A DNA stretch of 64,000 nt from a virus, in the IMG/VR virus record IMGVR_UViG_3300034101_003081, positions 1 through 64,000 of that record. The stretch is one strand, 5' to 3'. This document shows positions 11,000 to 63,000 of this stretch, one piece after another; position 1 is the stretch's first letter, and every line of letters starts with the position of its first letter. The notes under the pieces are model-generated. The model was not told the origin of the DNA, made no database searches, and worked only from the letters and a program-made list of their open reading frames with translations. Made by a program: the position numbers and the translations under genes.

Positions 11000-11413
11000 T
11001 CACGGAGCGAACTGCTGCACCCAGTACGCTCGACCGTCTGGACCGATGAACCCAGCCACGCCGATGCGGCGATAGCCACGGTTCAGGATGTTGGCGCGAT
11101 GCCCAGGAGACGCCAGCCACACTTCGACGGCTTCGGCTGCCGTCGGCTGGCCAGTGGCGACGTTCTCAGCAACGCGATCTGCGCTGTGCCGCAGCGACAT
11201 TTCGCGAGCCATCCTGCGGGCGTGCCGCCTCGCCGACGACATGAGTCCGCAGTCGACGACGAGAACAGGAGCGCCGTTGCTTGCGCGTGCTTCGTTTGTC
11301 TTGGACACGACCTGGGCTTCACCTGGCGTGAGGACGCTGCACGTCCCGTCGTTTGCGACAGCCGTCGCAGCGAACATGGTCAAGAGCAGAAAGATCGCGG
11401 TGCGTGTATCCAT
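11000..11413 (-). CDS. Secreted CAP/SCP-domain protein
   Basis: Signal peptide; NEARA, ARRHA..MA, ENVA and WLASPGHRANIL motifs. Confidence 0.9.
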   Translation of the reverse strand: MDTRTAIFLLLTMFAATAVANDGTCSVLTPGEAQVVSKTNEARASNGAPVLVVDCGLMSSARRHARRMAREMSLRHSADRVAENVATGQPTAAEAVEVWLASPGHRANILNRGYRRIGVAGFIGPDGRAYWVQQFAP

Positions 11414-11427
11414 ACAACTACCTCGCG

Positions 11428-11835
11428 TTAGGAGTTCTCGAACCAGTCGTCGCCGTGACGCTCGAAGAGACGAACATCCCGACAGCCGACGCTGCGTGCA
11501 ATCGTGACGCAGTACGGTGCAAACACGGCCAGCGGCAGTTGCGGATTGATCGAGCCGTCTGCGACCAGCATCGCAGCGGCCAGGCGAGCGATGCCGCGAC
11601 GCCGATGTGATTCGAGCGTGAACCCTTCGAGGGTCTGCCACGATCGCCACTCGTGCGTTGCTGCCCACGCTACGATCCTCCATGACCCGTCCCGCACAAT
11701 CGCGATCGGTGTCGTCGACCCGAGTCGACTCTGAACCTCTCGCTGGAACTGGCTTCCGTGCTTCGTCAGGCTCGCGACTATCGCCCTTGCGTCGAGGTCA
11801 GAGAGCCTTCCGACGGCCGTGGTTATCGCTTCCAT
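11428..11835 (-). CDS. GNAT-like acetyltransferase
   Basis: HRRRGIARL acetyl-CoA-binding motif A. Confidence 0.5.
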   Translation of the reverse strand: MEAITTAVGRLSDLDARAIVASLTKHGSQFQREVQSRLGSTTPIAIVRDGSWRIVAWAATHEWRSWQTLEGFTLESHRRRGIARLAAAMLVADGSINPQLPLAVFAPYCVTIARSVGCRDVRLFERHGDDWFENS

Positions 11836-11858
11836 ACTTCTCTCTGTCAATGGCTTTT

Positions 11859-12134
11859 TCAGTTCGTCGTGATCACAAAAATCGGCAGGTCTCGGCCAAC
11901 CAACTCAGGCACCGTGTGTTCGCTGAGGTAGTCCACTGCTTGCTCGTGCGAGAGCCCCTTGTTCGCCATGACGATCTCGACGCATGCCTCGTAGTCGTAG
12001 ACTGCGACTGGCCTGACTCCAGACGAATGGCCGATGTAGGCTTCCGAAAGACCCTTGGCAACGAGGGCTTTTGGGTTGACCGCCAGCAACTCTTGATACA
12101 CTTCACGCTCTTCCGGCCTTCTGGCGGCGATCAT
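11859..12134 (-). CDS. Conserved phage hypothetical protein (paralog of the C-terminal half of 13903-14391)
   Basis: GLSEAYIG...VAVYDYEAC...GLSHEQAVDY. Confidence 0.6.
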   Translation of the reverse strand: MIAARRPEEREVYQELLAVNPKALVAKGLSEAYIGHSSGVRPVAVYDYEACVEIVMANKGLSHEQAVDYLSEHTVPELVGRDLPIFVITTN

Positions 12135-12248
12135 GCTGCCTTCCTTTTGGTCTAATGACTTTCCGCCAGACTCCGTCGACGAGAACCAACTCGTAGACCG
12201 GCTTCCGAGACGGCTTTTCTGGCTCTGGCGGCCAGTTTTTTCTCGAAG

Positions 12249-12539
12249 TTATGCTTCCCATACTGAGTCGAGAACCTTCTGGGCTTCTTCTTTACTCGTG
12301 ACGACCTCGGCAACGGCGCCGGCTTGTTCACGAATCTCTTGCATGACGTGCTGCTGGAGCGGCGTCGGCTTCTTGCCGGGCTGTTTGACCTCAAGAAACA
12401 CGGCCCGGCCAGCCTTGACGCAGAGCAAGTCTGGGATGCCGGCTCGCTGAAACGCGCCACCGGCGATCTTGAACGTCCACCAGCCATGAGACTTGGCAGA
12501 CTTGACGATAGACTTGGTGATCGCAGTCTCAAGGGGCAT
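12249..12539 (-). CDS. VRR-NUC nuclease / Holliday junction resolvase
   Basis: GIPDLL...FLEVK.PGKKPTPLQ. Confidence 0.85.
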   Translation of the reverse strand: MPLETAITKSIVKSAKSHGWWTFKIAGGAFQRAGIPDLLCVKAGRAVFLEVKQPGKKPTPLQQHVMQEIREQAGAVAEVVTSKEEAQKVLDSVWEA

Positions 12540-13044
12540 TTCTTTTAGCCTCCCAGGCGCGAGCCACCCCTTTGCTGATCTTTTCTCGGATTTCAGGAGA
12601 ATGAGTCCTGCCGAGCATTGTCTGCCGTAACTTCTCTCTCGCACTTAACGAAAGAGGCTTGCCAGTCCTGGCTTGCCGAATCTTCTCCCTGGTCTGCTCA
12701 GAGTGAGGCTGCCCTGTGCGGTATTCTCTGATCTTCTGGCGAGACTCTTCGCTTTGGCGATAGCCAGTTCCGCCAAGCCCGCCGTGCTTGATGTTGTAGG
12801 TCGCCGTAGAAGAGACCCACAACTCCGACACGAGTTCCTTCTCTTTGGCGTAGGCCTTCTCGGCAGTCCTGAAAACAAAGAGCGTGCGTCTCTCGAACGC
12901 ATCTCGGCCGTGCTTGGCAACTGCGGCCTCAAGAATCGCGCCGCTGCCTAAGTATCCGTCGAACTCAGTTCCACTCTGACGGTGGACGCCGATGTACTTC
13001 TTGCCGTTGACCTTGTTGATGGTCTCGTAGACGATCCAGGGCAC
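12529..13044 (-). CDS. GIY-YIG homing endonuclease with NUMOD3-like repeats (Seg-like)
   Basis: IVYETINKVNGKKYIGVH, YLGSG, YNIK.GG; HSEQTREKI-type repeats. Confidence 0.85.
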   Translation of the reverse strand: MPWIVYETINKVNGKKYIGVHRQSGTEFDGYLGSGAILEAAVAKHGRDAFERRTLFVFRTAEKAYAKEKELVSELWVSSTATYNIKHGGLGGTGYRQSEESRQKIREYRTGQPHSEQTREKIRQARTGKPLSLSAREKLRQTMLGRTHSPEIREKISKGVARAWEAKRNAP

Positions 13045-13092
13045 GAATCAGTCCTCGCGGGTTCCCCTCCGCGAATGACGATGCGACGCTTT

Positions 13093-16328: not shown

Positions 16329-16440
16329 GCTTCGATTCGATCCGTCGATGTCAAAACGTCGCGGGGCGGCTCGCACAACCAGCCCCGCGACGCTCGGAGT
16401 CGCCATCCAATGGCGTGCGTAGCGTATCCGTACAACCCGA

Positions 16441-17674: not shown

Positions 17675-19338
17675 AGCGGCAACTCCATTCGGTAGCGATA
17701 TCCGTCGTCGACGAACATGAAGTCTTTCTTGGCCCTGGTGACTGCCACGTAAGCCACGCGGCACTCTTCGTCGTGCAGGTCAGACAGGGCGTTGCGAGAC
17801 CGCTCGACGCTCGGGCTCGTGATCGACGACAGGATCACCGTGTCGGCCTCTAGCCCCTTCGCGCCGTGGATCGTCGAGAGACGGATCGGAGGGTTTGAGG
17901 CAACTTCTTCGCCGTAGCGAGTTGCCGTATCCAGCCAAGTCTTCGCTCGATCAGAGGACTTCGGCTCAATCGCGAGATGCCACCGCCCCTGCGAGATCAG
18001 CGACGCCAGGGCAGGCGTGACGCCGATCAGTTCGTAGTCGTCTGGAGTGGGACGAATCAGGTCAATGTGCGACATCTTTCCGGACTTCCACGCTGTCTTG
18101 ATGCCGCGAGCGAGCAGTTCGCCGTAGTCGCCACTCTTCACGGCGATCGCCTGGACGGCATTCGCCCAGTCGTCGCCCGAGATCGTGCGGCCGTGCTGGA
18201 GCCCCCACAGGGCAGCGTATCCAGACAATGCCGAAGAGCCTGAAGACTTGTCGATCCACAGGTACGGCATGCCTTTGGCTTGGAGGATCGACTCGTACTC
18301 TTCGAGGGAGTAGGCGCAGCGGCCCAGAATGAGGGCCGACGTGTTGGCAGACAGGCGAGACAGGGCCTCTTCGGCACTGCCGACGCGACTTACGGAGCCG
18401 TCGTGGCCTGCGTGCTGGATTTGCCGATCCCGGTATCCCTTCGTCATCTGCCGCAGGCAGGCCTCCCCCAGGGCCAGCACCTGCCGCGGGCAGCGGTACG
18501 ACCGTTGCATGGTCGACTCGGTGGCCTCCCAGGACATGAAATGCGTGTAGTCGCCGCCGGCGAAACTGTGGATGGACTGGTACGGATCGCCACACAGCCA
18601 GATTCGCTCGATCGACGGGCTGGCAGCGAGCCGCTTGCAGACCATGTCGACGAGAGTCGACGAGTCCTGAGCCTCGTCGATCGCCAGAACACGAAGCCCC
18701 TCTGGCACGTCTCCTTCTGGCTCGGCCTTGTACGGCCCGTCCACCGTGTAGCGGACGCCTGCGAACTTGGCGATCACGTCCGTGAAGTCGAGCCTGCCCT
18801 GCATCTTCTTGGCGTTCTCGTACTTCTCGATCGTCCGACGGGCGTCGGCGAGCGTCGGCGTCTCCTCGCCGCACAAATCCCAGCGAGCCAGAATCGCCTG
18901 GACGCTCGTCATCTTGCTCCGGGCCAGTTCCCAGGCTTTCAGGGCCTGCGGGATCGCCCTGTCGTCTCCTTCGCCGGAGATGTACTGCCTCTCCCCTCGA
19001 CCGTCGATCCTCGTGCTGATCACGCCCCCAACGGCGTCCGAGACGAACTCGTCGCCGTCGCGGCCCTGGATCAGTTGGCCGTCGGCCACGCTGATCTGCC
19101 GGTACGCGATCGCGTGAGCCGTCCGGAACCATCCGTGGCTCGTCAGGGCATCGACGCCGACGTTCCACTCGGCGGCGGCCCTCGCCGCGATCTCGGCCCT
19201 GCCGGCCCTGGTGAACGTGCAGAAGCCGATCTCGTGGACGCCCAGGCCCAGTTCCCGCTTGGCCTGGGAGAGCCGATCGAGGATCAGCCTCGTCTTCCCG
19301 GTGCCAGCCCCGCCAATCGCCCGCTCTACCATTGCCAT
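17671..19338 (-). CDS. UvrD/REP-like SF1 helicase
   Basis: GGAGTGKT, IDEAQD, GDPYQSI, SYRC, STIHGAKGLE and YVAVTRAK motifs. Confidence 0.93.
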   Translation of the reverse strand: MAMVERAIGGAGTGKTRLILDRLSQAKRELGLGVHEIGFCTFTRAGRAEIAARAAAEWNVGVDALTSHGWFRTAHAIAYRQISVADGQLIQGRDGDEFVSDAVGGVISTRIDGRGERQYISGEGDDRAIPQALKAWELARSKMTSVQAILARWDLCGEETPTLADARRTIEKYENAKKMQGRLDFTDVIAKFAGVRYTVDGPYKAEPEGDVPEGLRVLAIDEAQDSSTLVDMVCKRLAASPSIERIWLCGDPYQSIHSFAGGDYTHFMSWEATESTMQRSYRCPRQVLALGEACLRQMTKGYRDRQIQHAGHDGSVSRVGSAEEALSRLSANTSALILGRCAYSLEEYESILQAKGMPYLWIDKSSGSSALSGYAALWGLQHGRTISGDDWANAVQAIAVKSGDYGELLARGIKTAWKSGKMSHIDLIRPTPDDYELIGVTPALASLISQGRWHLAIEPKSSDRAKTWLDTATRYGEEVASNPPIRLSTIHGAKGLEADTVILSSITSPSVERSRNALSDLHDEECRVAYVAVTRAKKDFMFVDDGYRYRMELPL

Positions 19339-19379
19339 GCTCTTTCCCTCCGTGGATGAATGAGACCCAGAAACCGCTC

Positions 19380-19505
19380 AAGTACCGTCCAAGTTCTTGT
19401 CTATATAGGAGTCAAAAGCCATTACCATATAAGGACTTACTCCCGTTTTTGACTTGTAGACTTAGACTTTTACTTTCATAGTCCTAATTATTTCCCTATA
19501 TAGAC
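19380..19505. other. Candidate replication origin
   Basis: Most AT-rich gap seen in the window; 11-bp inverted repeat (19399-19409 / 19495-19505); GACTT iterations; lies between primase and helicase. Confidence 0.55.
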
Positions 19506-22053: not shown

Positions 22054-22087
22054 TTTTGAGCCTCCTTGGGGAATCGTATCCAGACAA

Positions 22088-22936
22088 CTAAAACACCAAC
22101 TCTTGCACGGCGTGATACGAAGCGGGCACGTACGAGCCCGTTTCGCGTCGGGTGCGGATCGCATTGAGCGTCCGCGTGATTTCGTCGGCCGCCCTCGCCA
22201 TGGCATCGCCCGGCAGCGTCACGACCTTGACGTTGAACGGCGCGAAGGTCTGCACGACGATGAACTTGAAGTCGAACGGCTCGAAGCCAGCCACGCGGGC
22301 AGCGTCGGCATACCAGACAGCCTGCCAGTCGTAGCCGAATCTCCGGAACGAGAACTTCAAGTCTCGCCAGTCGCTGCTCGTGGTCTTGAGATCGAACCAC
22401 TCTCGCGGCGTGACGCCGTCAGCGCGGGCTTTTCGAGCGTGTCCTTCCGCGTCCGTCCAGAACACGCTGTACTGCGAGTGCCTCGCGGCTTCGACGAGCA
22501 ACCTCGCGGCGTCATGCTCACGGATCGCGTCGATGATTTCCTGCACCTTCGCGTAGTCCGTGGCGTTACACTCGCAGAAGCCGGAGGGCAGGGTGGATTT
22601 CCATTCTTGGTAGGCCTTGCCTCGACGGGAGCCGTCCGATGCCAGGACGCTATCTGGCGGCACGGCGACTTGCGATCGCCAGTCCATGCCGCGAATCTCA
22701 GCGCCGCAAGCCACGTCCACGAGCGTGCCGAAGCCCGTGCTGGCATTGCCCCCGAAGAGCGTGCCGCCGCGCTCGGCGTACTGCTGCGACCGTCCGCCCA
22801 TCTCGTCGTCGGCGTAACGGTGCGCCGTCGAGCGGCTGATGTGGTTCTTCTCGGCGTGGTAGACCTCGTTCGGCATGTCCACGTCAATGAACGGCCCGCT
22901 CTTCGTGTCGATTACCGTGTCCGTACTAACAGTCAT
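22088..22936 (-). CDS. RecE-like PD-(D/E)XK exonuclease (DUF3799-type)
   Basis: YHA...ISRS, KARADG, FDLKT, GYDWQAVWY and FKFIVVQ motifs. Confidence 0.85.
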   Translation of the reverse strand: MTVSTDTVIDTKSGPFIDVDMPNEVYHAEKNHISRSTAHRYADDEMGGRSQQYAERGGTLFGGNASTGFGTLVDVACGAEIRGMDWRSQVAVPPDSVLASDGSRRGKAYQEWKSTLPSGFCECNATDYAKVQEIIDAIREHDAARLLVEAARHSQYSVFWTDAEGHARKARADGVTPREWFDLKTTSSDWRDLKFSFRRFGYDWQAVWYADAARVAGFEPFDFKFIVVQTFAPFNVKVVTLPGDAMARAADEITRTLNAIRTRRETGSYVPASYHAVQELVF

Positions 22937-24918: not shown

Positions 24919-24962
24919 TGAGAGAGTCCTTCCTTCTAGGAGAGTGCGTGTCCGTACAAAAA

Positions 24963-26286: not shown

Positions 26287-26754
26287 TTAGACAGGCCACA
26301 CGTACGGAAGATCAGCCGGCTCGGACCATCCGAACCGCGAGTAATGCTCCGGAAACTTCCGGAGAAGGTTGGAGCGATGACTGGCATGGAACTCTGGCCG
26401 ACCAATCCAGCCTGGGAGCCCAGAGACGCTGCTCGGTGCGATGTCGGCGTAGGTCAGGCGAATCCACTCGCTGGCCTCGACGAACTGCTGAGTTAGCGTG
26501 TCCTTAAAACCCCTGGCGACCCACTCGTCGCAGACGGCGATCGCGTAGTGGGCCAGGGCCCGCTCGAAGCCGTACCACGCCTTGACGGCGGGGTGGTTCT
26601 TCCAGCGGCTCGCCGAGTTGCCATCGTGCTGGCCGACAGGCACACCGAGAGCGATGAGGATTTGCTTGGCCTCGACTCGCTGCTTGCCGAGACGACGGTC
26701 GTCGAGGCAGCGGGCCGAGTCGCGAAACGATGGCAGGGGCAGGAATGTTTGCAT
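26287..26754 (-). CDS. Pyrimidine-dimer glycosylase / endonuclease V family (MSMEG_6728-like)
   Basis: MQTFLP..F..SA..LD.RRLGKQRVEA.QIL, NHPAV, HASHRSNLLRK and LPYVWP motifs. Confidence 0.85.
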   Translation of the reverse strand: MQTFLPLPSFRDSARCLDDRRLGKQRVEAKQILIALGVPVGQHDGNSASRWKNHPAVKAWYGFERALAHYAIAVCDEWVARGFKDTLTQQFVEASEWIRLTYADIAPSSVSGLPGWIGRPEFHASHRSNLLRKFPEHYSRFGWSEPADLPYVWPV

Positions 26755-26822
26755 TGCTTTGCGTCTCCTTGTGTTGCGTATCCGTACAACTGTGCGAACT
26801 ATCGGGAATGGTTGCGAGATCG

Positions 26823-27089: not shown

Positions 27090-27123
27090 CAAGTGGTAGC
27101 GTGTCCGTACAAAATCTGTCAAG
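27090..27123 (-). promoter_or_regulatory. Promoter-like site with operator motif in the spacer
   Basis: TTGACA (27117-27122) followed by the 15-bp motif (27099-27113); the -10 element is weak. Confidence 0.5.
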
Positions 27124-27623: not shown

Positions 27624-27731
27624 GGGTAGGTGTCTCCGTTGATGTTCACCAACTGGTCGTCCAGCACGTACCACTCCTGGCCGGGGTAGTTCTCCTGCGG
27701 CAGTCACGAACGCGATTCTGTACTCTTTCAT
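27620..27731 (-). pseudogene. Frameshifted/deleted remnant of a small gene
   Basis: GGAG RBS + MKEYRIAFVT in one frame; QENYPGQEWYVLDDQLVNINGDTYP* in the adjacent frame, with its stop overlapping the next ATG. Confidence 0.4.
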
Positions 27732-28193: not shown

Positions 28194-28264
28194 TGGCGGT
28201 CCCTTTCTGCGTGTGTGTGTCCGAACAAGTCTGCAAGCCTCTGCCAGGCGATGAAACATGACAG

Positions 28265-28768: not shown

Positions 28769-28843
28769 TGTCCCGTCCTCCGTTTGTAGTCCCATCGTCC
28801 CGACCCGTGCTGCGGAACGCCCGCAGTACGGGTGTCCGAACAA

Positions 28844-29107: not shown

Positions 29108-29127
29108 TGTCGCGTCTCCTTTGGGCA

Positions 29128-29215: not shown

Positions 29216-29217
29216 GG

Positions 29218-31173: not shown

Positions 31174-31219
31174 TGGCGTCTCTCCTTTGGGTTCCGTGTC
31201 CAGACAAGCCTCGCGACAG

Positions 31220-33465: not shown

Positions 33466-33481
33466 GTTGGCGTGTCCAGAC

Positions 33482-34303
33482 TTAGCAAGACTCAAGACTC
33501 GGGAGGGAGACCCCGCACTGCTCGCAGAGTTTGGCGACCTCGGCGGCAAGTTCTGCCCTGGTGTGCGATCCAGCGCGGCGTGCCTCGCTCGTCGTGACGC
33601 AGCCCTCGTCGACCTCCAGGGCCGCCGGGTAGCAGTGACTTGGCAGGAACCCGAACCGCTCTTGGTGCGACCAGCACAGCCGACGCAGGCTCGCGTTGTG
33701 GCACAGGGCAAACGCGAGACGGTCGACGTCGACCGGCTGGTTCGCTGCCTTGACCAGCACCTCGACTTGGTGCTGGGCACGGCCGCCAGACGTCCGCGAC
33801 GTGGCCTTCGCGGCCCATAGTTCGACTCGCAGTCCCAGGCTTTCCAGAACGTCGACGGCGGCCAGGACAACGGCACCGCGAGCGAAGATCGCCTCGGCCG
33901 TCACGCCCGCACTGACGCCCAGGTTGGCGTACAGCCGGACGACCCGCTGCGACCCGAACCGGCCGGTCTCGTACTCGTTGTAAGAGCCGCAGGATTCCGG
34001 CTCGCCCGACAAGACGCGGCCGACGTCCACGAAGTCGCCGACGGCGTCCCAGGCGAACTGCTGGCAGGCGGCGACCTTCGAGGCCTCCACGTACTGATCG
34101 AGACTAGCCCGAATCTCGGCGACGCGAGCCGCACCCTCGTGCCAGCCAGCGTGCGCCAACTCGACGGCCTGCTCGAACGTGCGAGTGCCGAAGTGGCCTT
34201 CGCGGCCGACGTCGCGGCTGCTGATGCCCTTGACCTGCGGCACCTGGCGGACGTCCTCGACGAAGGCCTCGTACGAGTCAAAAGCGTGGCGGATGTGGCT
34301 CAT
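33482..34303 (-). CDS. AAA+ partner, degenerate vWA-like, paralog 3
   Basis: FGT.TF..AVELA..GW..GA, WD..GDF.DVGRVLSGEPE and AVDVLESLG.RVELW shared with two neighbours. Confidence 0.7.
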   Translation of the reverse strand: MSHIRHAFDSYEAFVEDVRQVPQVKGISSRDVGREGHFGTRTFEQAVELAHAGWHEGAARVAEIRASLDQYVEASKVAACQQFAWDAVGDFVDVGRVLSGEPESCGSYNEYETGRFGSQRVVRLYANLGVSAGVTAEAIFARGAVVLAAVDVLESLGLRVELWAAKATSRTSGGRAQHQVEVLVKAANQPVDVDRLAFALCHNASLRRLCWSHQERFGFLPSHCYPAALEVDEGCVTTSEARRAGSHTRAELAAEVAKLCEQCGVSLPSLESC

Positions 34304-36069: not shown

Positions 36070-36158
36070 TGGGATGGTTCTCCTGGGCGTTGGCTTGTGT
36101 CCCCGCTCCCCGGCCGGCAAGCCCATAGCCAGCCGGGGAGCGTATCCAGACAACTCGA

Positions 36159-37424
36159 CTAGAGGTTCGCCTCGATCTTGCTGCGGGTGTCCTTGTCGAG
36201 CCCCTTCCAGACGCAGGCGTCGAGAGTGGCATCGACGGGCCAGCCAGCCCGAAGCAGGGCGACGCCGTTGATGTTCGCACGCGGCGAGACGATCACCCGC
36301 ACGCCCTTGCCGAGCGAGGCAATGGCATTACGGACGGCGACGACCTTCTTCACGTACTCGGCGACCCGCTCCTCGGCGACGGCCTTCTCGACGTCGGTCT
36401 TCACCGAATGCACCTTGATCCCCTTGGCCTGCGGGGCCTCGGCGAACAACTCCAGGGACAGGCCGCAGGCCGCCGCCTCGATCCGGGGATCGTACTGCCA
36501 GTCGACCAGCACGAACCGATCGAGCGTCGCCGCGTCGATCTGCTGCCGTCCCACGTACTGCCGATCGGCACCCTGCCCGATCGTGTTGGCACCGGCGATC
36601 AGCACGAAGTCGGCATGCTTCGCGACGACGGCGTCGGGGAACGAGGCGTGCCCGTTGGCGAGCAACTGATTGATCACGACCAGCACGGCCGGATTGGCCG
36701 CGTCGACCTCGTCGAGCAGGAACACGCCACCATGCTCGTAGGCGTCGCGGAGTTGCGTCCGCACCACCTTGCCGTTGGCGTCGTGGTAGCCGAGCAGGCT
36801 CGACTCGGACGTCTGCGGGCCGACCGACTTGGCGTAGAACGGCAGGCCGAGCGAGTCCGCGACGGCATGCGCCGACGACGTCTTGCCAGAGCCGGCAGGC
36901 CCGACGAGCCAGCAATTCCTGCGGGCAGCAACGGCGGCGAGCAAGGCCTCAAACTGGACGTGCTGGACGCCCACGTCGTTGGCGACGCCCTCGACGGTCA
37001 CGACCTCGATCCGCTGCGGCACCAGGGCCGCGATCCGCTGATCGACGATCGCCGTGACCTCGTCGATATCGACGCCGCCCTTGCCGCCCTCGGAGGTCAC
37101 GAGCCCGGTGTCGCGGACGGCCTCGGCGATGATCTCGGCGAGGGAACGATTGCCGCGACCGCCGTCGATCTCCGAGTCAGACTCGACCTCGCCGTTACCG
37201 TGTCCAGACTTCTCGGCACCGCTCGCCCACAGGCTCAGGCCCCGGCTCGTCTTGACGACCTGCTCGCCGTTGGGTCCGACGAGATGGAAGAGACGGGACT
37301 GGCGACCCTTCTCGGTCTCGCGGGTCTCGACCCGCTCGATCGTGAACTCCCTGCCGTCCGCGACGGTGATGACGGCGCCGACCTTGTACGACTGCCACGA
37401 GTTGTTGATGACGTTGTTGTTCAC
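36159..37424 (-). CDS. MoxR/CbbQ/CobS-type AAA+ ATPase
   Basis: GPAGSGKT, FLLDEVD, GANT, DAATLDRF and VSPRA motifs. Confidence 0.9.
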   Translation of the reverse strand: MNNNVINNSWQSYKVGAVITVADGREFTIERVETRETEKGRQSRLFHLVGPNGEQVVKTSRGLSLWASGAEKSGHGNGEVESDSEIDGGRGNRSLAEIIAEAVRDTGLVTSEGGKGGVDIDEVTAIVDQRIAALVPQRIEVVTVEGVANDVGVQHVQFEALLAAVAARRNCWLVGPAGSGKTSSAHAVADSLGLPFYAKSVGPQTSESSLLGYHDANGKVVRTQLRDAYEHGGVFLLDEVDAANPAVLVVINQLLANGHASFPDAVVAKHADFVLIAGANTIGQGADRQYVGRQQIDAATLDRFVLVDWQYDPRIEAAACGLSLELFAEAPQAKGIKVHSVKTDVEKAVAEERVAEYVKKVVAVRNAIASLGKGVRVIVSPRANINGVALLRAGWPVDATLDACVWKGLDKDTRSKIEANL

Positions 37425-37798: not shown

Positions 37799-37868
37799 GG
37801 CCAGTCCCTCCGCGACGAGAGTAGCGTGTCCAAACTACTCTCGCCGTGCGGGATCATACGTCGCGTGC

Positions 37869-39376: not shown

Positions 39377-39404
39377 AGTGTACGGATACGCACACTGCGT
39401 GCAA
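39377..39404 (-). promoter_or_regulatory. Promoter for the Y RNA-rsr unit, overlapped by the 15-bp operator motif
   Basis: TTGCAC-16-TACACT; GCGTATCCGTACACT spans the spacer and -10. Confidence 0.7.
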
Positions 39405-40811: not shown

Positions 40812-41082
40812 GGTAAGCGTCTCCGTACAAACGAACCTCTTCCTTGAGTCTCTCCACGTACACGGCGGCGTCGAGCAACTCTTCTTGAAGATGCTGAAGC
40901 CATCCGGCGAGGTCGATGTCAGTACGATCCGTGGTCGTGCCGTACTTTCTGTACCCAGACTCGGAGCGAGCAAGCAGGGCTGCTCGAACTCGCATCACGT
41001 TCGTGTCTGGCAACTGGCAGTCGCCGCAAGCGTCTCTCTGAGGCTGCGACGGGCGCGCGAAGAGTTTCTTGAGCAGCGACAT
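40801..41082 (-). CDS. MazG-like all-alpha NTP pyrophosphohydrolase-like protein
   Basis: RS..GYRKYGTT.DR.D...WLQHLQEELLDA.VY. Confidence 0.55.
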   Translation of the reverse strand: MSLLKKLFARPSQPQRDACGDCQLPDTNVMRVRAALLARSESGYRKYGTTTDRTDIDLAGWLQHLQEELLDAAVYVERLKEEVRLYGDAYRGK

Positions 41083-41088: not shown

Positions 41089-41116
41089 AGTGTACGGACA
41101 CGCCAACTGTGGTCAA
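41089..41116 (-). promoter_or_regulatory. Promoter overlapped by the operator motif, probably leaderless transcript
   Basis: TTGACC-16-TACACT; GCGTGTCCGTACACT; ATG 7 nt past the -10. Confidence 0.7.
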
Positions 41117-41559
41117 GATTTTTTTCGCCGCCCCGGTGAGCGTCCGGACGCTCGCTTCTTTGGCGATCGTCGCTCGCCGACGAGACGAGGCCTGCCGTAC
41201 TGCGGCGGATTGGCGAGGTACTCGCGGATGTTTCGTTCGCACGACTCGCGGTCGACCGCCCAGCATTTGTCGTTGAGCCGAAACCCCTTCAGGCGACCGT
41301 CCACGAGCATGCGGCCGATCATGGCGTCCGTGACGCAGACAATGTCACAGGCCTCGGGCACGCTGATCCACCGCCGGCAGGCCTTTTGGAACGCCTCTAG
41401 ATTGCAATCCTGTGCAAGCACCGACTCGTGGCAGACCAGCAGACCCTTGCCGCTCAGAGGGACAGCCAGAATCTGTCCCTTGGCGATCCGCTTGAGGACG
41501 CCGACTTGGGAGATTTTGAGAATTGCAGCCGCTTCGGCCACGGAAATGGGCTGTTTCAT
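41113..41559 (-). CDS. Tandem double-HTH DNA-binding protein (candidate repressor or excisionase)
   Basis: ISVAEAAAILKIS..GV.KRI.KGQI and ISVPEACDIVCVT...IGRML.DGRL; divergent from the integrase. Confidence 0.75.
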   Translation of the reverse strand: MKQPISVAEAAAILKISQVGVLKRIAKGQILAVPLSGKGLLVCHESVLAQDCNLEAFQKACRRWISVPEACDIVCVTDAMIGRMLVDGRLKGFRLNDKCWAVDRESCERNIREYLANPPQYGRPRLVGERRSPKKRASGRSPGRRKKS

Positions 41560-41700
41560 GGTTTGCCTCTCCGTACAAGTTGCCCAAAAAACCGACCCCC
41601 GCAGGGGTCAGTCTTGACAGTGCAATGGCGGGGGTAGGATTATTCGTCAAGAAGCAGCGGCAACGGAATCGCTGCAATGCTCGCGCACGGAGGATTGGAA

Positions 41701-43991: not shown

Positions 43992-44032
43992 GCCTGGCCT
44001 CCTGTGTCCTGGGGCCAGTGAGCGTATCCAGA

Positions 44033-44332
44033 CTAAGGCCGGCGGCAAGCAGATTTTCCAGGGTCGAGCCTGTACCCCAGCGAGTACAGAATCTTGGCGA
44101 TGTCGCTCGCGGCTTGCGTGACGGCTTCCTCGCTCACGACGAACGTACCCATGCTGGCGTGCAAGCCCTCGTGAATCTCGCACTCTAGTCTTGAGCGGTG
44201 CTTGAGACTTGAGTTGATCAAGACTTTGCGCTTTGCGGGCTCTGTCCAGCCGTCGGCGTCGCCTTTGAGCGGCGAGTATCTCCAGAGCCAGCGGTGGCCT
44301 TCGGGGCCTAGTTGGAAGCGATGGTCTTCCAC
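44033..44332 (-). CDS. Small HExxH metallopeptidase-like protein
   Basis: IHEGLHA..SEE.V. Confidence 0.6.
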   Translation of the reverse strand: MEDHRFQLGPEGHRWLWRYSPLKGDADGWTEPAKRKVLINSSLKHRSRLECEIHEGLHASMGTFVVSEEAVTQAASDIAKILYSLGYRLDPGKSACRRP

Positions 44333-47500: not shown

Positions 47501-50500
47501 GCTCGCTGAACTTCAGAATTGCCGGTTCTGTGTACCGCTCTCCGGCGTTTTCGATCTTCAGTTCGACGTCACCCTTGGACACTGGAGGGCCAAACGTAGG
47601 ATGCCCAAGCAGCCAGAGCGACTGATCTTGCTCACGAACTCCGCAGGCTCCTCCAATTCGTAACTGCTCTATCTGCTGCGACTCTGGAAAACGCGGCGGC
47701 GGGATGTCCAGATGCCCCGCGCTCTCGAAACCGTAAAACAATCCGCCGGCTTCCTGCCTTGCGAAACCAGCCTGCGTAATCTCTGCCCACGGCTCTGCCC
47801 CGCCGATTTTGGCCGGCCCAACCCCGCCGTGGCGGAGTTGGCTTGGAACAAGTTCGTACACAGCGCCGCTGCCGGCGGTGTCCACAACCTCAAGGGTGCC
47901 GTACGAAAGCGGAAACACCTCTCTTGTGTATCCTTTCTTCGTCTGCACGAGGCCCTCGGTGACGTCCGTGCTTGGAGGAATAGGCGGAACATGCCCAGCA
48001 GTCCACGAGTGAAGATTGAACCCGCCATACGCAGTATCGTTGTGCGGGTAGAAAGTGTGGGGGACGACCGAGCCGCACCATGTGTCGAATCCTCGGAGGC
48101 TAGCAAGCGGTTCATTGGGGCTGTCAGGGACGCCGACTAGGTAATTTGCCCCCCACGGGCCGCCAAGCCCTTCCCAGGCCGGAGCCGCAAACTCGCCCGA
48201 TGAATGCACAGATGTCTGCACCGAAACAGACTGCAAGGTTGGGTGGTTATTGAAGCCAGTGCCAGCGCAGTCTATTTTTGTATAAGTTTCCGTTCTTTCG
48301 ATTATCCGCCAAGCAAACTTTTGGCCTGAGTACCTGAGTTTCGCCTGTCGCGTGTACCCCGAGCCTCCGCTCTTGAGAACAAAGACTCCGCTTGTGCCTT
48401 GCGGGCCGTCGAAATGATCGCCGGGAGCCTCGATGATATTAAGAGTCTTTGTATAAGCGGGAATCGCAGGAGTCCTCGCGATTGCTGCGAAAGGCCAAGA
48501 AGCCGATGAAACCTTCTGGTAAGTAAGCGAGTAGTCGCCGCTGGTAGCGGCTGTGTTGCGATTCTTGTTTGGCAAGCGACTTCCATGCACGGCGGCTGTA
48601 GCGTTGAGGTGCCACGCCACGCCGGCTGCGTCAATCGCCATCGCCCGAGAGCCGACGGCGACAACCTGCTCGCACGAGTCTGGGCCAACGAGACTTGCGG
48701 AGGCAGACAAGACAGGCTCCCCGCGGGGCTCAAAGTAGACCTCCGGCAACTCTATGTATCCGCACCCGCCGGTTACGGAGATTTCGTAGTCTCCTTCGTA
48801 TTTGATATTGGCGAAATAGTCTCCGGAAAACTCTCTGAAGCCAGCGCCATCGGATGAAACTGCGGAACTCCCCCGAGACTTCTCCTGACGATTGCAGGAA
48901 GCCACCGCCGCATGGATTCCCTCGTACGCCGGTGGAGAAATGAAGATTCTTTCTGGCGAGACTGGGCATGAGTCGTCCCCCATCGCGGGCGTCGCCGTTA
49001 TGTAGACCCGCTTGCCGACTGGGCTAGGCTTTAATATTGCATCCGAAAGGCCAGGAACGCTTCCCCACCAATAAACCCGCCCGTCAGACTTTATTGCAAG
49101 TGAGTATCCGCCTTGACCGGCCGCAACAGACTTCCATGTGTCAGTTCCGACTTGTCGCCATCGCTGCCTGAAAGATTCGATCTTCACGATTGGCTCGGAA
49201 GAGTATCCGTACCCGCCATCAGTTAAAACTGGCTGCTGGATAACTCCCTCCGGAGAGGCTGTCGCCGTTCCGGCTGCGTCTGCTCCGGAGTGCGAGAGGA
49301 ATTGAAGGTTGTACATTACGGATTCGATTGGCGGGCCATCCCACCCAGAAGCCGGCACTCGGCCTGCTACCCACTTCTTGATATGCGGAGCAACTTGACC
49401 AGAGATCGTCACTTGCGGAGCGGGGGTGCCGGGCGGCGGATTCTCTCGAATGCCGACCTTTCGCTGGACAGCGTAAAGGCCTCCATCGACAATCTTTGCC
49501 TCAACTTCGGCGTCACTTTCCGAAAACGAAACAGACGCTGACGTCCAATAATTGCCAAAGATACCAATCCCACCAATGCCCACAGCCTGCTTAACAACAC
49601 TTGGGTTCGGCGACTGAGCAGGAAAAGGCGGAAACGCCTGCTCCCACGGAGCGCATGTTGGAAACACGTTCCCCGTCGCAGCGATGTATGTGTACGGAGG
49701 GCTGTCTGTAGGCTGAACTGTCCCCGTGACAACAATCCACGGCCTGCACGGCCATCCGTCCGAATTGGACGTGACAGTGACAGTCCCGCTTTCGTCTGCG
49801 GCGATTGTCTCTGATCGCCCTCCAACAACGAGAGAGACTTGATACTCGCCTGCTGGATAGTATCCAAGCACAGTTCCGCTTTTGACTCTCCCGAAAGTCT
49901 GCTTCGGAAACGCAACCTGGCTCGCATTTGGCCCAAGAGTAAGCGACTGGACTGGGCCGGGCTCAATTTTGCACACAAACGCTGCTGCGTTTGATGGAAC
50001 GCCGAGGCCTATGCCGTCCAAATAGGACAGCGTAGGCGAGTCTTGAAACTCGTCGCTTGGGTCTCTAGAGAACACGACAAATGGCGAACGCCTAAGTTCA
50101 CCGTCACTTGTCGAGTGCGAAAACCTGGCAGTCGTGTAGCCGTTTCCAGGCGACTTGATTACAACCGACTCGACAACGCCTTCTGACTTCGCCGCTGCCT
50201 CGGCGCCGCTGCCTCCCCCCCCCGAGAAGACAATCTTTGGCTTCTCTTTGTAGCCGTCATAGCGGGCAGGGCTTGCCGACGAGTTCACCGTCACCGAGTG
50301 AACGTAGCCATTCCCAAAGGTCGCGGTGGCCGTCGCGCCGGAGCCTGGCCCGGAAAAAGTTATCGGGTAGCCCGATCCTCCTTGGCCGCCGTACAGGCCT
50401 GGGGTGCCTACTGTGACTTCGAGGACGTGATTCAAGACAAGGCTGGCAGTGGCCGACGCCCCGCTCCCGCCTCCGCCGGTAAAACGAATCTGCGCCGACT

Positions 50501-53363: not shown

Positions 53364-53378
53364 GTGTGCGTGTCCGTA

Positions 53379-56300
53379 CTATCGGGCTGAGAGTTGGGCG
53401 ATGACTTCGGCAGCCTCCGGCTGGGCTGCTGCTTCGGCGAGGATGCGGGTGTTTCTCGCGACCTCCAACTGAGCCTTGAGGCCTGGATTGTCGTTGCCAC
53501 GAAGAATCCGGAAGAACGTGTCCACGCCCGCCTTGCTGCGGACGTCCGATGACTCGATGGCTCGGCGATCGGGAGCGACCTTGTCGAGGGCGGGCTTGAG
53601 GTCTTCTTGGAGTTGGGCTTGGAGGACTTTTTTCCGCTGGGTGCCGTCTTCGTCGGTAATCAGCCCCTCCTCGACCGCCCTGTTGACGGCGTCGAGGTCT
53701 CGCTCGAACTTCTTCACGGGGCTCTCCGCTTCGCCGCCTGGGAGCATCGCCCGGCGGGCCTCGTCTTGGCCGCGAGTGAACTCCTCTTGCGAAATGAGGC
53801 CCTTGTCGAACGCTTCGCGAAGGTCGCCAAGCCGCTCGCCGAGTTGTGTCACTGGGTCAAGAGGAATGCCGAGCGACTGGAGCAGCGAATCCTTCGCCTT
53901 TTGCGACCCCTTGGCGAACTCCTCGGCGCTGATCTGTCCCTTGTTGAACGCCTCGTCGAGTTTCTTCAGCGACTCCTCGGCGGCCTGGGCCGGGCTCTTG
54001 TCGATTCCAAGCGACTGAAGCAGTTTGTCCTTGGCTTCCTTGAGCCCCTTCTGCAACTCCTCTGGCGTCAGTTCGGCGGCATTCTCTTTGATCTTCGCGA
54101 TTGCATCCTCGAAGTCCTGTGCGGGCGTTTTTGAGATTCCAAGCGAAGACAGCAAGGCGTCCTTCTGTTCTTTGACGGCCTTGTTCATCTCCTGCTCGGA
54201 GATGACTTTGTCGTTGAACGCCTTCTCAAGTTTTGCCCGAGACTCTGCGAGTTTCTGGGCGCCGCTTTTTTCGACGCCCAGATTTGCCTTCACGGCCTCA
54301 GAGTTCTTCTTGATCGCCTCTTGGTACTCCGCGAACTTTTCGGGGCCGAGTTCCTTCTGAATCTCCGTGAGAGACTTGCCAGCAACGCCGAACACGTCAT
54401 TGATGTTGTCAACGCCTGCTTTGAGTTGCTGAGCAGGGCTAGCGTCGAGGCCAGCAGCCTTGCGTCGCTCGATGTCCAGTTTTGTCCTCTCGGTCGACGC
54501 CCTGACTTCGCCGGCCGCGCGAGAGCCTTCCGAAGACATGAACGCCGTTCTGCCGTACTGGTCGACGGCGGTCGCATTTGCGAACATACCTTCCTTGTCT
54601 CTCAGCGAATCTCCGGCAGACTTGCCGAACGTCGACTCCACCATCTGCTTCTGCTCCGCGATGGTGGCAAGAGACTTCTCTTGGGGAGTGAGAGACTTGT
54701 TGTTGGCAATCTCCTTGAGTTTCTTCTCGTACTTTTGGACTGGGGACAAAAATGCGTCTTCGAGAGCCTTGCGAATATCGTTCGCAAAAGACACGTCGGC
54801 TTCGATCTTCTTGTTGTTGCGGTCGAGATTCGCCTTTGCCTGCTCTCTCGCCTGTGCTGCCGCACGAAGGGCCTTCTGTCCCTGGCCGAAGTCTCCTCTC
54901 TGGAGAGCCTCTTCGATGCGAATCAGTTCGTCTTGGTATGCCATCGCGAACTTCTCTGCCGACTGCTTGACTTCGTCAGACGTCGGAAAGAAGCGGTCTG
55001 TATTCAGGTCGCTGCCGATGTCGCTGCCCCGCATCAGGGATCGCGTTTGGGCAAATGCTTCTTCGACAGACTTCCGCATCTCTTCTGCCGATTGCTGGAA
55101 CTGCTCCGGCGAGATCACGTCCGCAAGATTCAAGTTTTCTTGCAGGCGGCCTCGTATTTCCCGCGTGCGGCGCTCAAAAGCCTCGACTGCCGTCTCAGTC
55201 CGCTTCGTGCCGTCCTCGTTGACAATGACCTTGAGTTCAAGGGTTCCGTCGGCGAGTTGCTGCTGGAGTTTGTCGAAGTCAGCCTTGGCGGCCAAGAACG
55301 ACTTGCGGCCAGCCTCGCCGAACCGCGAAGCGTTCAGCGAAAGCCCGATCATGTTTTCCCTGGCGACGCCGACTGACCTCGCAAGCGCGTCGTAGTCTTC
55401 AGTCGGCATCTCTGGCGTCTTGCCAGTGAATCCAGCCACTGCGGCCTCGGCCTGAAACTTCGCCGTTTCTTGCCCGCGACGCGACTGAACGACGTCGCCG
55501 ACAGATGCAGTCGCCGCGTTGATTTTCTCTGGTGTTTTAATTCCGCTAATGGACTTAATGATGCCGCCGATGATGCCACCGAAGAAACCCGTTACGGTTT
55601 CGGCCACCGTCTTGAACGCGCCGAAGATGGCGTCTGCAATCGCGGTGCCTACCTCGGCGAGCCCATCGAGCGTGAACAACTTTCCAATATTGTCGCCAAA
55701 ATTGGAAAAGTAGGCGTAGAGTTTGTCAAAGTTCTGAATGAGGGCGATGATCGCCACTGCGACCGCCGCGAGGCCCAGCGTGCCAATAATCCAGGCAGCA
55801 GCCATGGCGTATCCGGTAGCCGTTGCGGACACCGCGATCGCCGAGTTTCCAGTAATAACCATCGCCACTGACGTCATAAACGGCGTGAGCAGTTGGGCGA
55901 GCGTAGACGTTCCGGCGACAATCATGCTCGCCACCCACTTCGACGACATCGCGACGACGTCGATGGTGAGCATGCGGACCAACTTGATGATTCCGCCGAA
56001 GATGGTCGCGAAATTGAGGCCCGACAGGCCTGCGGCAAACTTCGCAAGTGCTGCGCCTGCTTGGATTCCAAACGACTGCATGACAGCAGACGCCACGCCG
56101 GCCGACACGACCACAGTGGCGAACGTCTTGACGATGAAAACCAGTCTGTCAAAAAGGCTTGCAGACTCTTCGATTACTGGATTGAGTTCAGAAGAGAACG
56201 CAGATGCGATTTGCTGCACATAGTCAACGCTCTTTTCGATCTCTGCGAGCGCGTCCTTGATGATTGTCCCGAGCGCCGTCCACGCGGGGGCGATTGCGGT

Positions 56301-61409: not shown

Positions 61410-61615
61410 GGATGCCTTCTAGGCTTGCGGCCGACGACAGCCCGCTCGACAGCCTCGGCCGTCTGGTCGACAGCCTGCTCGACGTCGATGGACCGAGACT
61501 CGGCGAACTCCTCGGCAATCCCGTTAAGAAGCCAATTGCGAGCCGTTGGCTCGAAGACTTCTGCGACTTCGCCCCGCTTGTGGTACGACCAATCTCTCAG
61601 GAGTCGAACTCTCAT
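61406..61615 (-). CDS. Small head-associated hypothetical protein
   Basis: MRVRLL...GEV.EV....A..WL..GIAE. Confidence 0.6.
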   Translation of the reverse strand: MRVRLLRDWSYHKRGEVAEVFEPTARNWLLNGIAEEFAESRSIDVEQAVDQTAEAVERAVVGRKPRRHP

Positions 61616-61617
61616 CG

Positions 61618-62403
61618 CTATCTAGCCTCACACTTCGCTGCATGTTCAGGAGAACCCCACGCCTCCGGTGGTCGCCGCCCGCCTGCCTGCCAGTAGTGAT
61701 TCGGATACTGATGGACTGCCTTGAGTTGCTGGTCAGGCCAGGTAATCACCAGTTCTGCGTGGCCGATCGAGACTTGCGGACAGATCGCCAGCGTGTTGCC
61801 GCACTCCCGCCACTTGCGCCACATGTAGATGTCTGGATCGACTCTCGCGGTCTTGCCGTCGCCAGGCTCGACGTCCGCCCAGTCTCCGTCGGAGTTTGGC
61901 ACGCCCAGGAACCACGGCTTCGGCATGCGGCGAAGGGCAGACGTCCGCAAGACCGTCAGGCCAAAGTGGGCCGAGTCCACAGGCTGAACTGGCTTCTCCC
62001 ACCACTCCAGCGGCAGCGTCACGACGCGATCGTGGTCACCCGACAGCCCCTTCGGCGTGAACATCAACTTCTGATCGTCTCGCTTCGTCTGAAGCGGCGC
62101 GACGGCGTCGTAGCCGGAGATAAGACACGCCGACACGAGCCGCGAGATGCACTCGGGCTCGTACACGCTGTCGTAGTCCATCGTGATAATGAAGTCGTAT
62201 CCGGACTCTTCACGGCTCAAGTCCGTGAGAATCCGAGACATGACCTGATCCCAGAAGGCCCCGGTCCCCTTTGTGAGGGGGATGCCAAACTGAGAGAACG
62301 CCTGAATAGAGCAATAGTAGTTGTCCATAAAGCCTAATCGCGGGACCGAGATGGCGCCCGCGATCTTGACTTCATGCTCAACATTACCGACGACGATTCG
62401 CAT
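61618..62403 (-). CDS. GT-A fold glycosyltransferase within the head module
   Basis: TMDYD (DxD), HFGLTVL, M.KPWF, PDIYMW..W...G and V.IGH motifs. Confidence 0.75.
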   Translation of the reverse strand: MRIVVGNVEHEVKIAGAISVPRLGFMDNYYCSIQAFSQFGIPLTKGTGAFWDQVMSRILTDLSREESGYDFIITMDYDSVYEPECISRLVSACLISGYDAVAPLQTKRDDQKLMFTPKGLSGDHDRVVTLPLEWWEKPVQPVDSAHFGLTVLRTSALRRMPKPWFLGVPNSDGDWADVEPGDGKTARVDPDIYMWRKWRECGNTLAICPQVSIGHAELVITWPDQQLKAVHQYPNHYWQAGGRRPPEAWGSPEHAAKCEAR

Positions 62404-62435
62404 TTATCCCAAGCCTCTTGATGGAGTACACGAAG

Positions 62436-62487
62436 AGGCGGCTTGGGCATCCGTGCCCAGTCAAAACCATCCGTGGTTGAGCCGCCT
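62436..62487 (-). promoter_or_regulatory. Three-way-junction RNA with two CACGGAUG hairpins (CsrA/RsmA-type)
   Basis: Outer stem AGGCGGCT/AGCCGCCT; inner hairpins AACCA-CGGA-TGGTT and TGGGCA-CGGA-TGCCCA on the mRNA strand. Confidence 0.65.
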
Positions 62488-62514
62488 GTTTTTGGCTCCC
62501 CCCCGAAACTTGTT

Positions 62515-62949
62515 TCAACCGCTCACGAAAGCGTCGACACCGGCAGCGTTCTTCTCGACGGGCATGTCCTCGATCTTCGAGAGACGAGCCACCGTCGCGA
62601 CCGCGGCGGGATTGCCCGGCGTGGTCACGACCGTGAGATACCGCTTCTTGCCGCGGCAGTCGATGTTGAACCGGGCCAGAGCCCCGGTCACGCCGACGCC
62701 GGTCGTCCGACCAGCACCGGCCACTACCGAGAGACCAGAGACGTCAACCTGGCCGCTGCCAGCCGTGTCGCTCTGCTGCACCTTCAGCACCGTGGCGTAC
62801 GAGGTCGTCGCGGCGGTGAAGTGGCTGTACACCACGTCGACCGACACGTAGTCGGCACCGTAGGTGTCGATCTCGGCGCTGTGCGTCGCGCCGGCGGCCA
62901 CACTCGGCGAAATCCTCGCAACGGTCTTCGTTCCTTCGAGATGATTCAC
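62515..62949 (-). CDS. Capsid decoration/cement-like protein
   Basis: Directly after the capsid gene; beta-rich; EIDT.G..Y, L.VQ.SD and KRYL.V motifs. Confidence 0.6.
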   Translation of the reverse strand: MNHLEGTKTVARISPSVAAGATHSAEIDTYGADYVSVDVVYSHFTAATTSYATVLKVQQSDTAGSGQVDVSGLSVVAGAGRTTGVGVTGALARFNIDCRGKKRYLTVVTTPGNPAAVATVARLSKIEDMPVEKNAAGVDAFVSG

Positions 62950-63000
62950 TGTTCAGAGTCTCCAGTCAGGGATGGGGCAGGGTGAGTGTGTCCGTACTTA

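Follow-up and report, generated by a model that had tools for sequence, protein, structure and literature searches.

An oriented, genome-wide array of an 18-base-pair DNA word in a lineage of uncultured phages and its possible role as promoter operators and polar transcription blocks

Within a 64,000-nucleotide (nt) stretch of the IMG/VR virus record IMGVR_UViG_3300034101_003081 (bases 1-64000, hereafter the window), an original prediction made from the letters alone had described a short motif recurring at gene junctions as a stoperator-like network. We found that this motif belongs to an 18-base-pair (bp) word, of which about 33 copies are scattered over the 97,385-bp source record (G000 below), nearly all of them facing one way. 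Abundance, placement and conservation indicate that the word is a real, strongly selected and lineage-wide array of DNA sites. We give roughly even chances to the interpretation that the copies are the sites of one sequence-specific phage protein, serving as operators within promoters and probably as polar blocks at gene junctions. The sites, their placement, orientation and conservation, as well as the fold of a candidate reader protein, were computed here.

The core GTRTCCRDAC matches 22 times in the window, 20 times on the plus strand and twice on the minus strand, compared with 1.08 ± 0.99 (maximum 4) in dinucleotide-preserving shuffles, and a stricter 14-mer, GCGTRTCCRDACWW, occurs 10 times against 0.02 expected. 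The original prediction of about 22 copies, 20 of them in one orientation, was thereby confirmed, and all of its example coordinates were correct. In the whole record, the core occurs 23 times in the forward and twice in the reverse direction. A 20-nt weight matrix with a cut-off of at least 12.6 bits detects 31 sites on the plus strand and 2 on the minus strand, also picking up the variant copies at 40819 and 41567. Read with transcription, the full site is the asymmetric 18-mer TTGTMYGGAYACGCWMAC (for example, TTGTACGGACACGCTACC, in which GGA occupies positions 5-7), with 18 conserved positions and about 23 bits, instead of the 15 bp proposed at first. The suggested pseudo-palindrome is limited to the outer GT and AC, the centre being asymmetric, and the word is devoid of inverted arms of the kind that a tyrosine recombinase site needs. 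We detected no conservation in the 18 bases upstream or the 20 bases downstream of the word and no second box resembling a -35 element. The two inverted copies score 21-22 bits, the same height as the sense copies. In the literature, we found no report of the word in a phage context, and to our knowledge none of the boxes of the host regulators GlnR, DasR and PhoP fits both of its main variants.

The word is concentrated where genes meet. Twenty of the 28 sense sites scoring at least 14 bits do not lie fully inside a called gene, although the non-coding share of the genome is 6.7% according to a codon-usage-based gene call (138 genes, 133 leftward), and the 18-mer accounts for much of the scarce non-coding DNA of the lineage. 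The copies inside genes also exceed a codon-preserving shuffle: there are 7, where synonymous-codon shuffles give 1.2 ± 1.0, and none is antisense. At 22076, 28832, 33472, 44024, 53370 and 62988, the core is -1 to 3 nt away from the upstream stop codon, which agrees with the contacts with stop codons predicted for these junctions (listed as 22074, 28830, 33470, 44022, 53368 and 62986). The contacts predicted with a start codon or ribosome-binding site (11404, 40817 and 41565) hold as well, since the word at 11406 includes the start codon, and at 40819 and 41567 the start codon follows 7 nt after the core. Over all copies, the core-to-start distance is variable, from 20 nt inside a gene to 95 nt upstream of it, and several copies are located deep inside genes.

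We surveyed the translation signals around the junction copies in five genomes of the lineage. In about half of these copies, 0-4 nt separate position 1 from the end of the preceding stop codon; this codon often constitutes the WW at positions -1 and 0, and overlaps with stop codons span positions -2 to 1. In seven copies, the word takes the form GTATGGA, and the ATG within it (positions 3-5) serves as the start codon. The next start lies at positions 15-18 in eight copies, and GGAG at positions 5-8 is found in four of these eight, compared with none of the 52 other junction copies. The remaining junction copies have a separate ribosome-binding site and a start at positions 23-47. Such flexible placement, together with a degenerate position tuned as a ribosome-binding site, would be expected of a DNA site fitted into minimal gaps, and would not be expected of a signal held at a fixed distance from the start codon.

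Comparison with related uncultured phages indicates that the word itself is maintained. The contigs G001 and G002 are syntenic with the source record at 75-85% DNA identity, and G002 (92,855 bp) has direct terminal repeats. At orthologous junctions, the word is retained while the flanks diverge: the invariant positions are 100% identical in about 23 orthologous comparisons, whereas the flanks are 77-80% identical, and orthologous sites switch between allowed variants (e.g., at 26778, 33472, 36142 and 53370). Genome-wide, the sense and antisense copies number 29:4 in G002, 14:3 in G001, 19:2 in G003, 32:5 in G004, 28:2 in G005, 18:5 in G006 and 8:1 in G007, with control counts of 1-9; the orientation tally of the translation-signal survey was 15:0 to 30:2 in four relatives. 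A scan of virus contigs with one exact 14-mer yielded 61 matches, mostly single chance ones, and eight array loci, five of which are the relative contigs already known and three of which are new (G009 to G011). The one-way excess is present in these three additional fragments too, and at least eight related uncultured phage contigs retain both the word and its bias.

A subset of the copies is embedded in predicted promoters. Five to eight sites overlap the spacer, the -10 element or the start site of predicted sigma-70-like promoters, and beyond the window the word also lies over likely start sites (96175 and 90014, with the word at 96130 and 89970). Three promoter copies had been proposed; we found more, at 16424, 27101, 39380, 41092 and 44024 between the -35 and -10 elements and at 37826 about 10 nt past a likely start. 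The leftward promoters bearing the word have a fixed geometry, consisting of an A-tract, a TTGAC-type -35 element, a 16-nt spacer and a TACNCT -10 element. In P16448 and P44048, a sense copy starts 15 nt from the start of the -35 element and supplies TACGCT. The only two inverted copies, as had been predicted, both supply the -10 element (TACACT); in P41116 and P39404, position 1 of the inverted motif lies at 24 nt from the -35 element. Both geometries recur in G002, and the inverted promoter copies are retained in G001, G002 and a clade whose version of the double helix-turn-helix (HTH) protein discussed below is 54-62% identical. Located in the spacer, the -10 element, the start site or the early transcribed region, and in either orientation, the word behaves like an operator, to judge from its position.

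Other promoters are free of the word. A module of about 95 nt occurs three times (29108-29217, 29668-29811 and 37425-37573; 81% mean column identity) and comprises a GGGGG...CCCCC hairpin with a T-run, TTGACA, 17 nt and ATACTT or GATACT; it also includes CGACA-N11-TGTCG. This module looks like a terminator plus a word-free promoter, possibly with its own operator, and word-free promoters of this class recur in G002, G004 and G005. The word splits the promoters into two classes, with and without it. As a separate observation, the stretch 16329-16440 behind P16448 comprises a leader of about 60 nt and an intrinsic terminator (CGTCGCGGGGC...GCCCCGCGACG, with TTTT after it), and the N6_N4 DNA methyltransferase gene 15402-16328 comes next; this arrangement could be an attenuator or a small RNA.

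The leading candidate for the reader of the word, which we hold tentatively and with somewhat less than even confidence, is the 148-residue tandem winged-helix protein encoded at 41113-41559, the same double-HTH protein that the original prediction had singled out. It matches HTH_17 and, in both halves, excisionase-type PHROGs, but has no sequence match to any solved structure. An AlphaFold2 model built with 24 homologues (predicted local distance difference test score, pLDDT, 89) shows two helix-helix-strand-strand units and, behind them, a disordered basic tail (GRPR...KKR). The top whole-protein structural match, over residues 1-113 and with 11% sequence identity, was TraN of pIP501 (Foldseek E 7e-3; VIA Z 8.0; root-mean-square deviation 3.4 over 100 residues). 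The first domain matches Xis of mycobacteriophage Pukovnik (Z 7.9, 30% identity) and BldC, and the second domain matches winged helices of the MerR family (Z 5-6). Across the family, the second domain is near-invariant, and the first domain and the tail are variable. The repressor of TipsytheTRex was not among the listed structural matches, an absence that does not exclude it. TraN (PDB 4p0y, 4pm3) is a monomeric repressor that forms an internal dimer of winged helices and inserts its recognition helices into two neighbouring major grooves of an imperfect inverted repeat (PMC6158623). Such binding would suit the weak pseudo-symmetry of the 18-bp word. Homologues of the candidate reader form 52 clusters in metagenomes, and 26 loci are found in IMG/VR. 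In all 16 loci encoding a 54-85% identical protein, the word is present at the 5' end of the gene and an inverted copy is found in the promoter just after the gene.

According to the favoured interpretation, the phage protein would dock on the double-stranded 18-mer. Because the promoter sites fill the spacer and provide the -10 element, a bound protein would exclude RNA polymerase, and these copies would function as operators. The approximately 20 lone junction copies in one orientation would most likely be polar blocks to the transcribing polymerase, as in Cluster A stoperators, and the early and middle block (11-45 kb) could be silenced as a whole. The 148-residue protein might bind as a monomer that places its two domains in neighbouring major grooves, and it would be self-limiting by means of the word at its own ribosome-binding site and in the next promoter downstream. 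Binding, repression, the polar block and the identity of the reader are what we infer from the anatomy of the sites. The word stays unchanged over deep divergence and there is no known prophage, which would point to a global, temporal shut-off in the course of infection and not to prophage immunity. The complete scenario, a stoperator-type, genome-wide polar block that arose independently of the L5 family in a widespread lineage of uncultured phages of about 95 kb, with a TraN-like reader of tandem Xis fold and for temporal shut-off instead of immunity, is conceivable, and we regard it as speculative.

Several observations weigh against these interpretations. With 133 of 138 genes pointing in the same direction, the orientation of the word relative to transcription is inseparable from its orientation in the genome, and the bias could track the direction of replication or packaging instead of transcription. 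A site in a promoter spacer is also the loading mode of Q-type and AlpA-type antiterminators. The search for prophage relatives in 185,579 species genomes, with either the HTH or the capsid protein, found none, and none of the family contigs G000 to G011 is classed as a provirus, which leaves a role in silencing during lysogeny unsupported. As for the candidate reader, its tandem winged helix, the match to TraN and the word copies flanking its gene speak for the original proposal, whereas its setting and the conservation of another protein do not. The pair of recombinase and HTH genes is conserved and resembles an integrase-excisionase pair, and an HTH_17 protein beside a tyrosine recombinase is the classic excisionase arrangement. 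The word occurs at so many junctions that its flanking one particular gene is weak evidence for a reader, and in the clade with 44-47% identity the upstream copy is mostly missing at the HTH gene. The rival HTH protein 5172-5594 is 58-80% identical across the lineage and thus better conserved than the double-HTH protein. The consensus of the word remains constant while the identity of the double-HTH protein falls from 85% to 44%, only the preferences at degenerate positions shifting; this constancy of the word is in keeping with a regulator that does not serve immunity, with a reader that is itself conserved better (e.g., 5172-5594) or with a host factor. In Cluster A phages, by contrast, the site consensus co-varies with the repressor (PMC6550527). 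The oriented layout of the predicted stoperator-like network agrees with that of Cluster A (PMC6550527), whereas a co-variation of word and candidate protein was not found.

Alternatively, a positive elongation factor comparable to Q, AlpA or RfaH-ops might load at the copies: a docked phage protein would join the polymerase and render it terminator-resistant, and repeated one-way copies would keep it processive along very long co-directional operons. We consider this unlikely, even though it accounts for a number of features. Several sites lie in promoter spacers or just past likely starts, an intrinsic terminator stands within about 75 nt of P16448 before the methyltransferase gene, the double-HTH gene lies just behind a hairpin with six T residues, and the one-way bias follows naturally. 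The candidate protein is of the Xis/HTH_17 type, to which AlpA also belongs, and a word constant across the lineage suits a core transcription function better than immunity. However, a downstream terminator is present at only one or two of the word-bearing promoters, most copies are at gene ends lacking both promoters and terminators in their vicinity, the inverted copies take the place of the -10 element itself, and the top whole-protein structural match of the candidate is a repressor.

It is less probable still that the word is a phage-specific promoter or start element, with each sense copy starting a transcript and a hitherto unrecognised polymerase, sigma-like factor or activator as its reader. 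A conserved one-way 18-bp word upstream of genes, next starts at positions 15-18 with a leaderless look or 23-47 nt away with a ribosome-binding site, and a 2,896-residue head-module protein without a recognisable family could all be taken in this sense. Nevertheless, no Sigma70_r2 domain was found in G000 or G002 by a search that did recognise its control genomes. A T7-type polymerase was not detected either, which counts for little since in that search the control genomes gave nothing as well. The large head-module proteins contain no polymerase family, and the word is not accompanied by a conserved -35 element or second box. Moreover, at 11406, at 22917 and at seven sites across five genomes, the word contains or follows the start codon, so that a transcript begun downstream would lack it, and the occurrence of GGAG in four of eight start-abutting copies against none of 52 indicates that the word there is part of the leader of a translated messenger. 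The inverted copies, for their part, lie within ordinary leftward promoters.

An element acting in RNA, mentioned as an alternative in the original prediction, would be a GGA-containing site in the messenger for a CsrA-like protein or a nuclease that controls translation or processing at junctions. The strand bias (31 of 33 copies on the sense strand) and the frequent overlap with ribosome-binding sites and starts are in keeping with such a role, and ACGGAU resembles CsrA-type sites. We nevertheless consider it highly improbable. No common hairpin was found, the predicted pairing being heterogeneous between sites and the mean unpaired probability of the word (0.43) matching that of its flanks (0.42-0.46); positions 3 and 8 do not co-vary; and no Rfam family matches the word. 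The distance to the start varies from within the gene to far upstream, and the conserved, high-scoring inverted copies lie upstream of the start sites of their promoters. Because these inverted copies are retained in relatives and no RNA fold is shared, we favour a word that is recognised as DNA.

A recombination or boundary sequence for module exchange between related phages, with no regulatory role, is scarcely credible: 5 of 66 edges of homology blocks between G000 and G002 are found 40 nt or less from a site, where 1.8 would be expected (P ~0.03), and a gene and its site at 24938-25221 are present or absent jointly, but this enrichment is weak, sites and block edges both fall at gene boundaries anyway, most sites are inside continuous homology, the fixed promoter geometry and the in-gene copies would be left unexplained, and the inverted arms of a tyrosine recombinase site are missing.

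The individual copies in the window and the two genes discussed with them are collected in Table 1.

Table 1. Copies of the word in the window, with the candidate reader and the recombinase gene
Feature	Position	Strand	Remarks
Site TTGTATGGATACACGCAC	11400..11417	-	Gene 11000-11413 starts with the ATG at motif positions 3-5
Weak variant AAGTATGGAAGCGATAAC	11822..11839	-	13.7 bits; 7 nt after A-tract plus TTGACA at 11850
Site in promoter P16448 (TTGACT, 16 nt, TACGCT)	16418..16435	-	Supplies spacer and -10; methyltransferase gene downstream
Weak in-gene variant TTGGCTGGATACGGCAAC	17921..17938	-	15 bits; same core in G002
Full-consensus in-gene site	18211..18228	-	Within 555-residue gene 17671-19338; retained in G002
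Junction site	22070..22087	-	2 nt past stop of exonuclease gene 22088-22936; 22 nt before next start; contains TACGAT
Site in first codons of gene 22088-22936	22911..22928	-	Right after overlapping upstream stop; in G001 and G002
Junction site	24942..24959	-	5 nt past stop of gene 24963-25220; gene and site jointly missing from G002
In-gene variant TTTTAAGGACACGCTAAC	26492..26509	-	Closer form GTGTCCGTAA (+ strand) in G001 and G002
Junction site	26772..26789	-	23 nt before start of gene 26287-26754; other allowed variant in G002
Site in likely promoter spacer (P27122)	27095..27112	-	Starts 6 nt after A-tract plus TTGACA at 27122
Junction site	28211..28228	-	23 nt before start of gene 27774-28193
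Junction site	28826..28843	-	2 nt past stop of gene 28844-29107; then hairpin
Junction site	31190..31207	-	22 nt before start of gene 30760-31173
Junction site	33466..33483	-	5' AA within upstream TAA stop; next ATG from motif position 17
Junction site	36136..36153	-	7 nt past stop of AAA+ ATPase gene; then hairpin
In-gene site	37194..37211	-	Within AAA+ ATPase gene 36159-37424
Leader site of gene 37574-37798	37820..37837	-	17 nt past -10 of P37882 (TTGCAC, 18 nt, TATGAT); ~10 nt past likely start
Inverted copy in leftward promoter P39404 (TTGCAC, 16 nt, TACACT)	39378..39395	+	Supplies -10; upstream of Ro60 region
Variant TTGTACGGAGACGCTTAC	40813..40830	-	GGAG is ribosome-binding site for ATG (motif position 18) of gene 40575-40811
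Inverted copy in leftward promoter P41116 (TTGACC, 16 nt, TACACT)	41090..41107	+	ATG of gene 40801-41082 starts 7 nt past -10
Candidate reader	41113..41559	-	148 residues; two Xis/MerR-type winged-helix domains; basic GRPR tail
Variant TTGTACGGAGAGGCAAAC	41561..41578	-	Overlaps ribosome-binding site of double-HTH gene
Tyrosine recombinase, short, XerC/D-like, 288 residues	41956-42822	+	Diverges from double-HTH gene; pair retained in G002 to G005
Site in P44048 (TTGCCG, 16 nt, TACGCT)	44018..44035	-	Overlaps upstream TAG stop and supplies -10; dGTP diphosphohydrolase gene next
Weak in-gene core match	49197..49214	-	13.3 bits; poor flanks; no aligned counterpart in relatives; possibly chance
Junction site	53364..53381	-	Overlaps tape-measure TAG stop; next ATG from motif position 17; in G001 and G002
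Weak in-gene core match	62191..62208	-	15.5 bits; not retained in G002; possibly chance
Junction site	62982..62999	-	3 nt past stop of major capsid gene; identical in G002

The source record is estimated to be 99% complete and has a G+C content of 0.606. The leftward genes include those for terminase, portal and prohead protease, all beyond the window, the major capsid gene ending at 63001, the tape-measure gene 53379-58142 and a gene for a 2,486-residue tail protein, and the small early or middle genes form a leftward block from about 41.5 kb down to 11 kb. Convincing rightward genes are limited to a 54-residue open reading frame (ORF) and the tyrosine recombinase at 41.7-42.8 kb, which is the only recombinase seen. 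An ORF of 2,896 codons (68775-77465 of G000, beyond the window) lies between the portal and prohead protease genes; it has no Pfam family and gave a single weak PHROG match of unknown function. Nucleotide and protein searches of 50,697 phage records revealed no close cultured relative, with a capsid match of only 26% identity and a portal match of about 40%, and the double-HTH protein had no match among these records. A plasmid search gave no match either, and no tRNA genes were found in the phage genome. None of the 185,579 species genomes encodes a relative of the double-HTH protein, and the only capsid match among them was a 3.3-kb contig of a metagenome-assembled bacterium. Look-alikes of Ro60 lean towards Actinomycetota, which is a lead only as to the host. 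Given the lack of prophage relatives and the direct terminal repeats of G002, classical lysogeny is doubtful, and the recombinase may have another purpose.

Some further features of the window deserve mention. On the minus strand at 41585-41615, a hairpin (GACCCC-TGC-GGGGTC) with six T residues adjoins the ribosome-binding site of the double-HTH gene on its upstream side, so that no promoter would fit between the two; on the opposite strand, TTGACA, 18 nt and GATTAT (41614-41643) are directed at the 54-residue ORF and the recombinase. The small proteins 5172-5594 and 10562-10900 are paralogous, with an N-terminal HTH and a shared WSD-E--RR motif; we rejected a GcrA-like assignment of the two, as neither had a Pfam match even at E = 5. 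Direct repeats of AGACTTG (GAGACTTG) occur in clusters of three to four at 27624-27700, 32760-32848 and 33484-33500. AGACTTG is the reverse complement of the 5' half of the word (CAAGTCT), and these repeats could be iterons or half-sites. A 157-nt A+T-rich gap at 19339-19495, in a genome of 60% G+C, carries TATAG- and TAAGTC-type repeats and might be an origin or a regulatory region. The 85-residue gene together with the word copy after its stop (24938-25221) is cleanly missing from G002, which resembles joint gain or loss.

Stoperators have been experimentally shown for one related group of actinobacteriophages and one repressor family. If our interpretation is right, dispersed one-way protein roadblocks would be a general means by which phages silence long co-directional operons, and the new 18-bp site and a small monomeric protein would form a pair for synthetic transcription control. 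The lineage also offers a clean test case, the word being constant across relatives though the candidate reader is only 44% identical.

Among known systems, the repressor of phiC31 has many sites dispersed in the early region, several of them at promoters, which are conserved inverted repeats. Being palindromic, those sites have no orientation, and their reader belongs to a different protein family. The start-associated sequences of Cluster K phages (PMC3203893) are likewise oriented short repeats at gene starts and are able to replace the ribosome-binding site. They keep a fixed short distance before starts, whereas the word described here is variable in position and more often hugs the previous stop, and this variability excludes an identity with start-associated sequences. 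With TraN, the candidate reader shares a single chain with two winged-helix domains and a predicted internal dimer. TraN has two known sites on its plasmid, in contrast to the genome-wide oriented array here, and the likeness in fold is no proof of function. Outside the mycobacteriophages, stoperator-type arrays have likewise been inferred from sequence alone in Cluster CA Rhodococcus phages (5'-TGTCTATTGTCAAG, about 25 sites; PMC5721134, PMC13313380) and in R4-like Streptomyces phages (PMC10276819). These two groups share gene content and repressor type with Cluster A, whereas the lineage here has no detectable cultured relative.

The closest parallel is offered by the Cluster A phages, which have about 30 asymmetric repressor sites oriented with transcription, some serving as promoter operators and most as elongation-blocking stoperators (PMC6550527). 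Compared with the systems of L5 (gp71), Bxb1 (gp69) and TipsytheTRex, the likeness in copy number, asymmetry, orientation, junction placement and the subset within predicted promoters holds at the level of sequence. The Cluster A repressor is a monomer with two DNA-binding domains (PMC9283540), and the candidate reader would similarly be one monomeric chain with two such domains. As the original prediction had it, the sequence is different: the word has 18 bp (TTGTMYGGAYACGCWMAC) as opposed to the 13 bp of Cluster A (GGTGGMTGTCAAG), and the candidate protein, a tandem Xis/MerR winged helix, appears to differ in type from the Cluster A repressors with their HTH plus Stoperator domain. The remaining differences are the constancy of the word while the candidate protein diverges, the 97-kb genome with nearly all genes on one strand, and the prophage relatives that were not found in our searches. 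By its anatomy, the array would work like a stoperator system, possibly having arisen independently, and should not be filed in that family.

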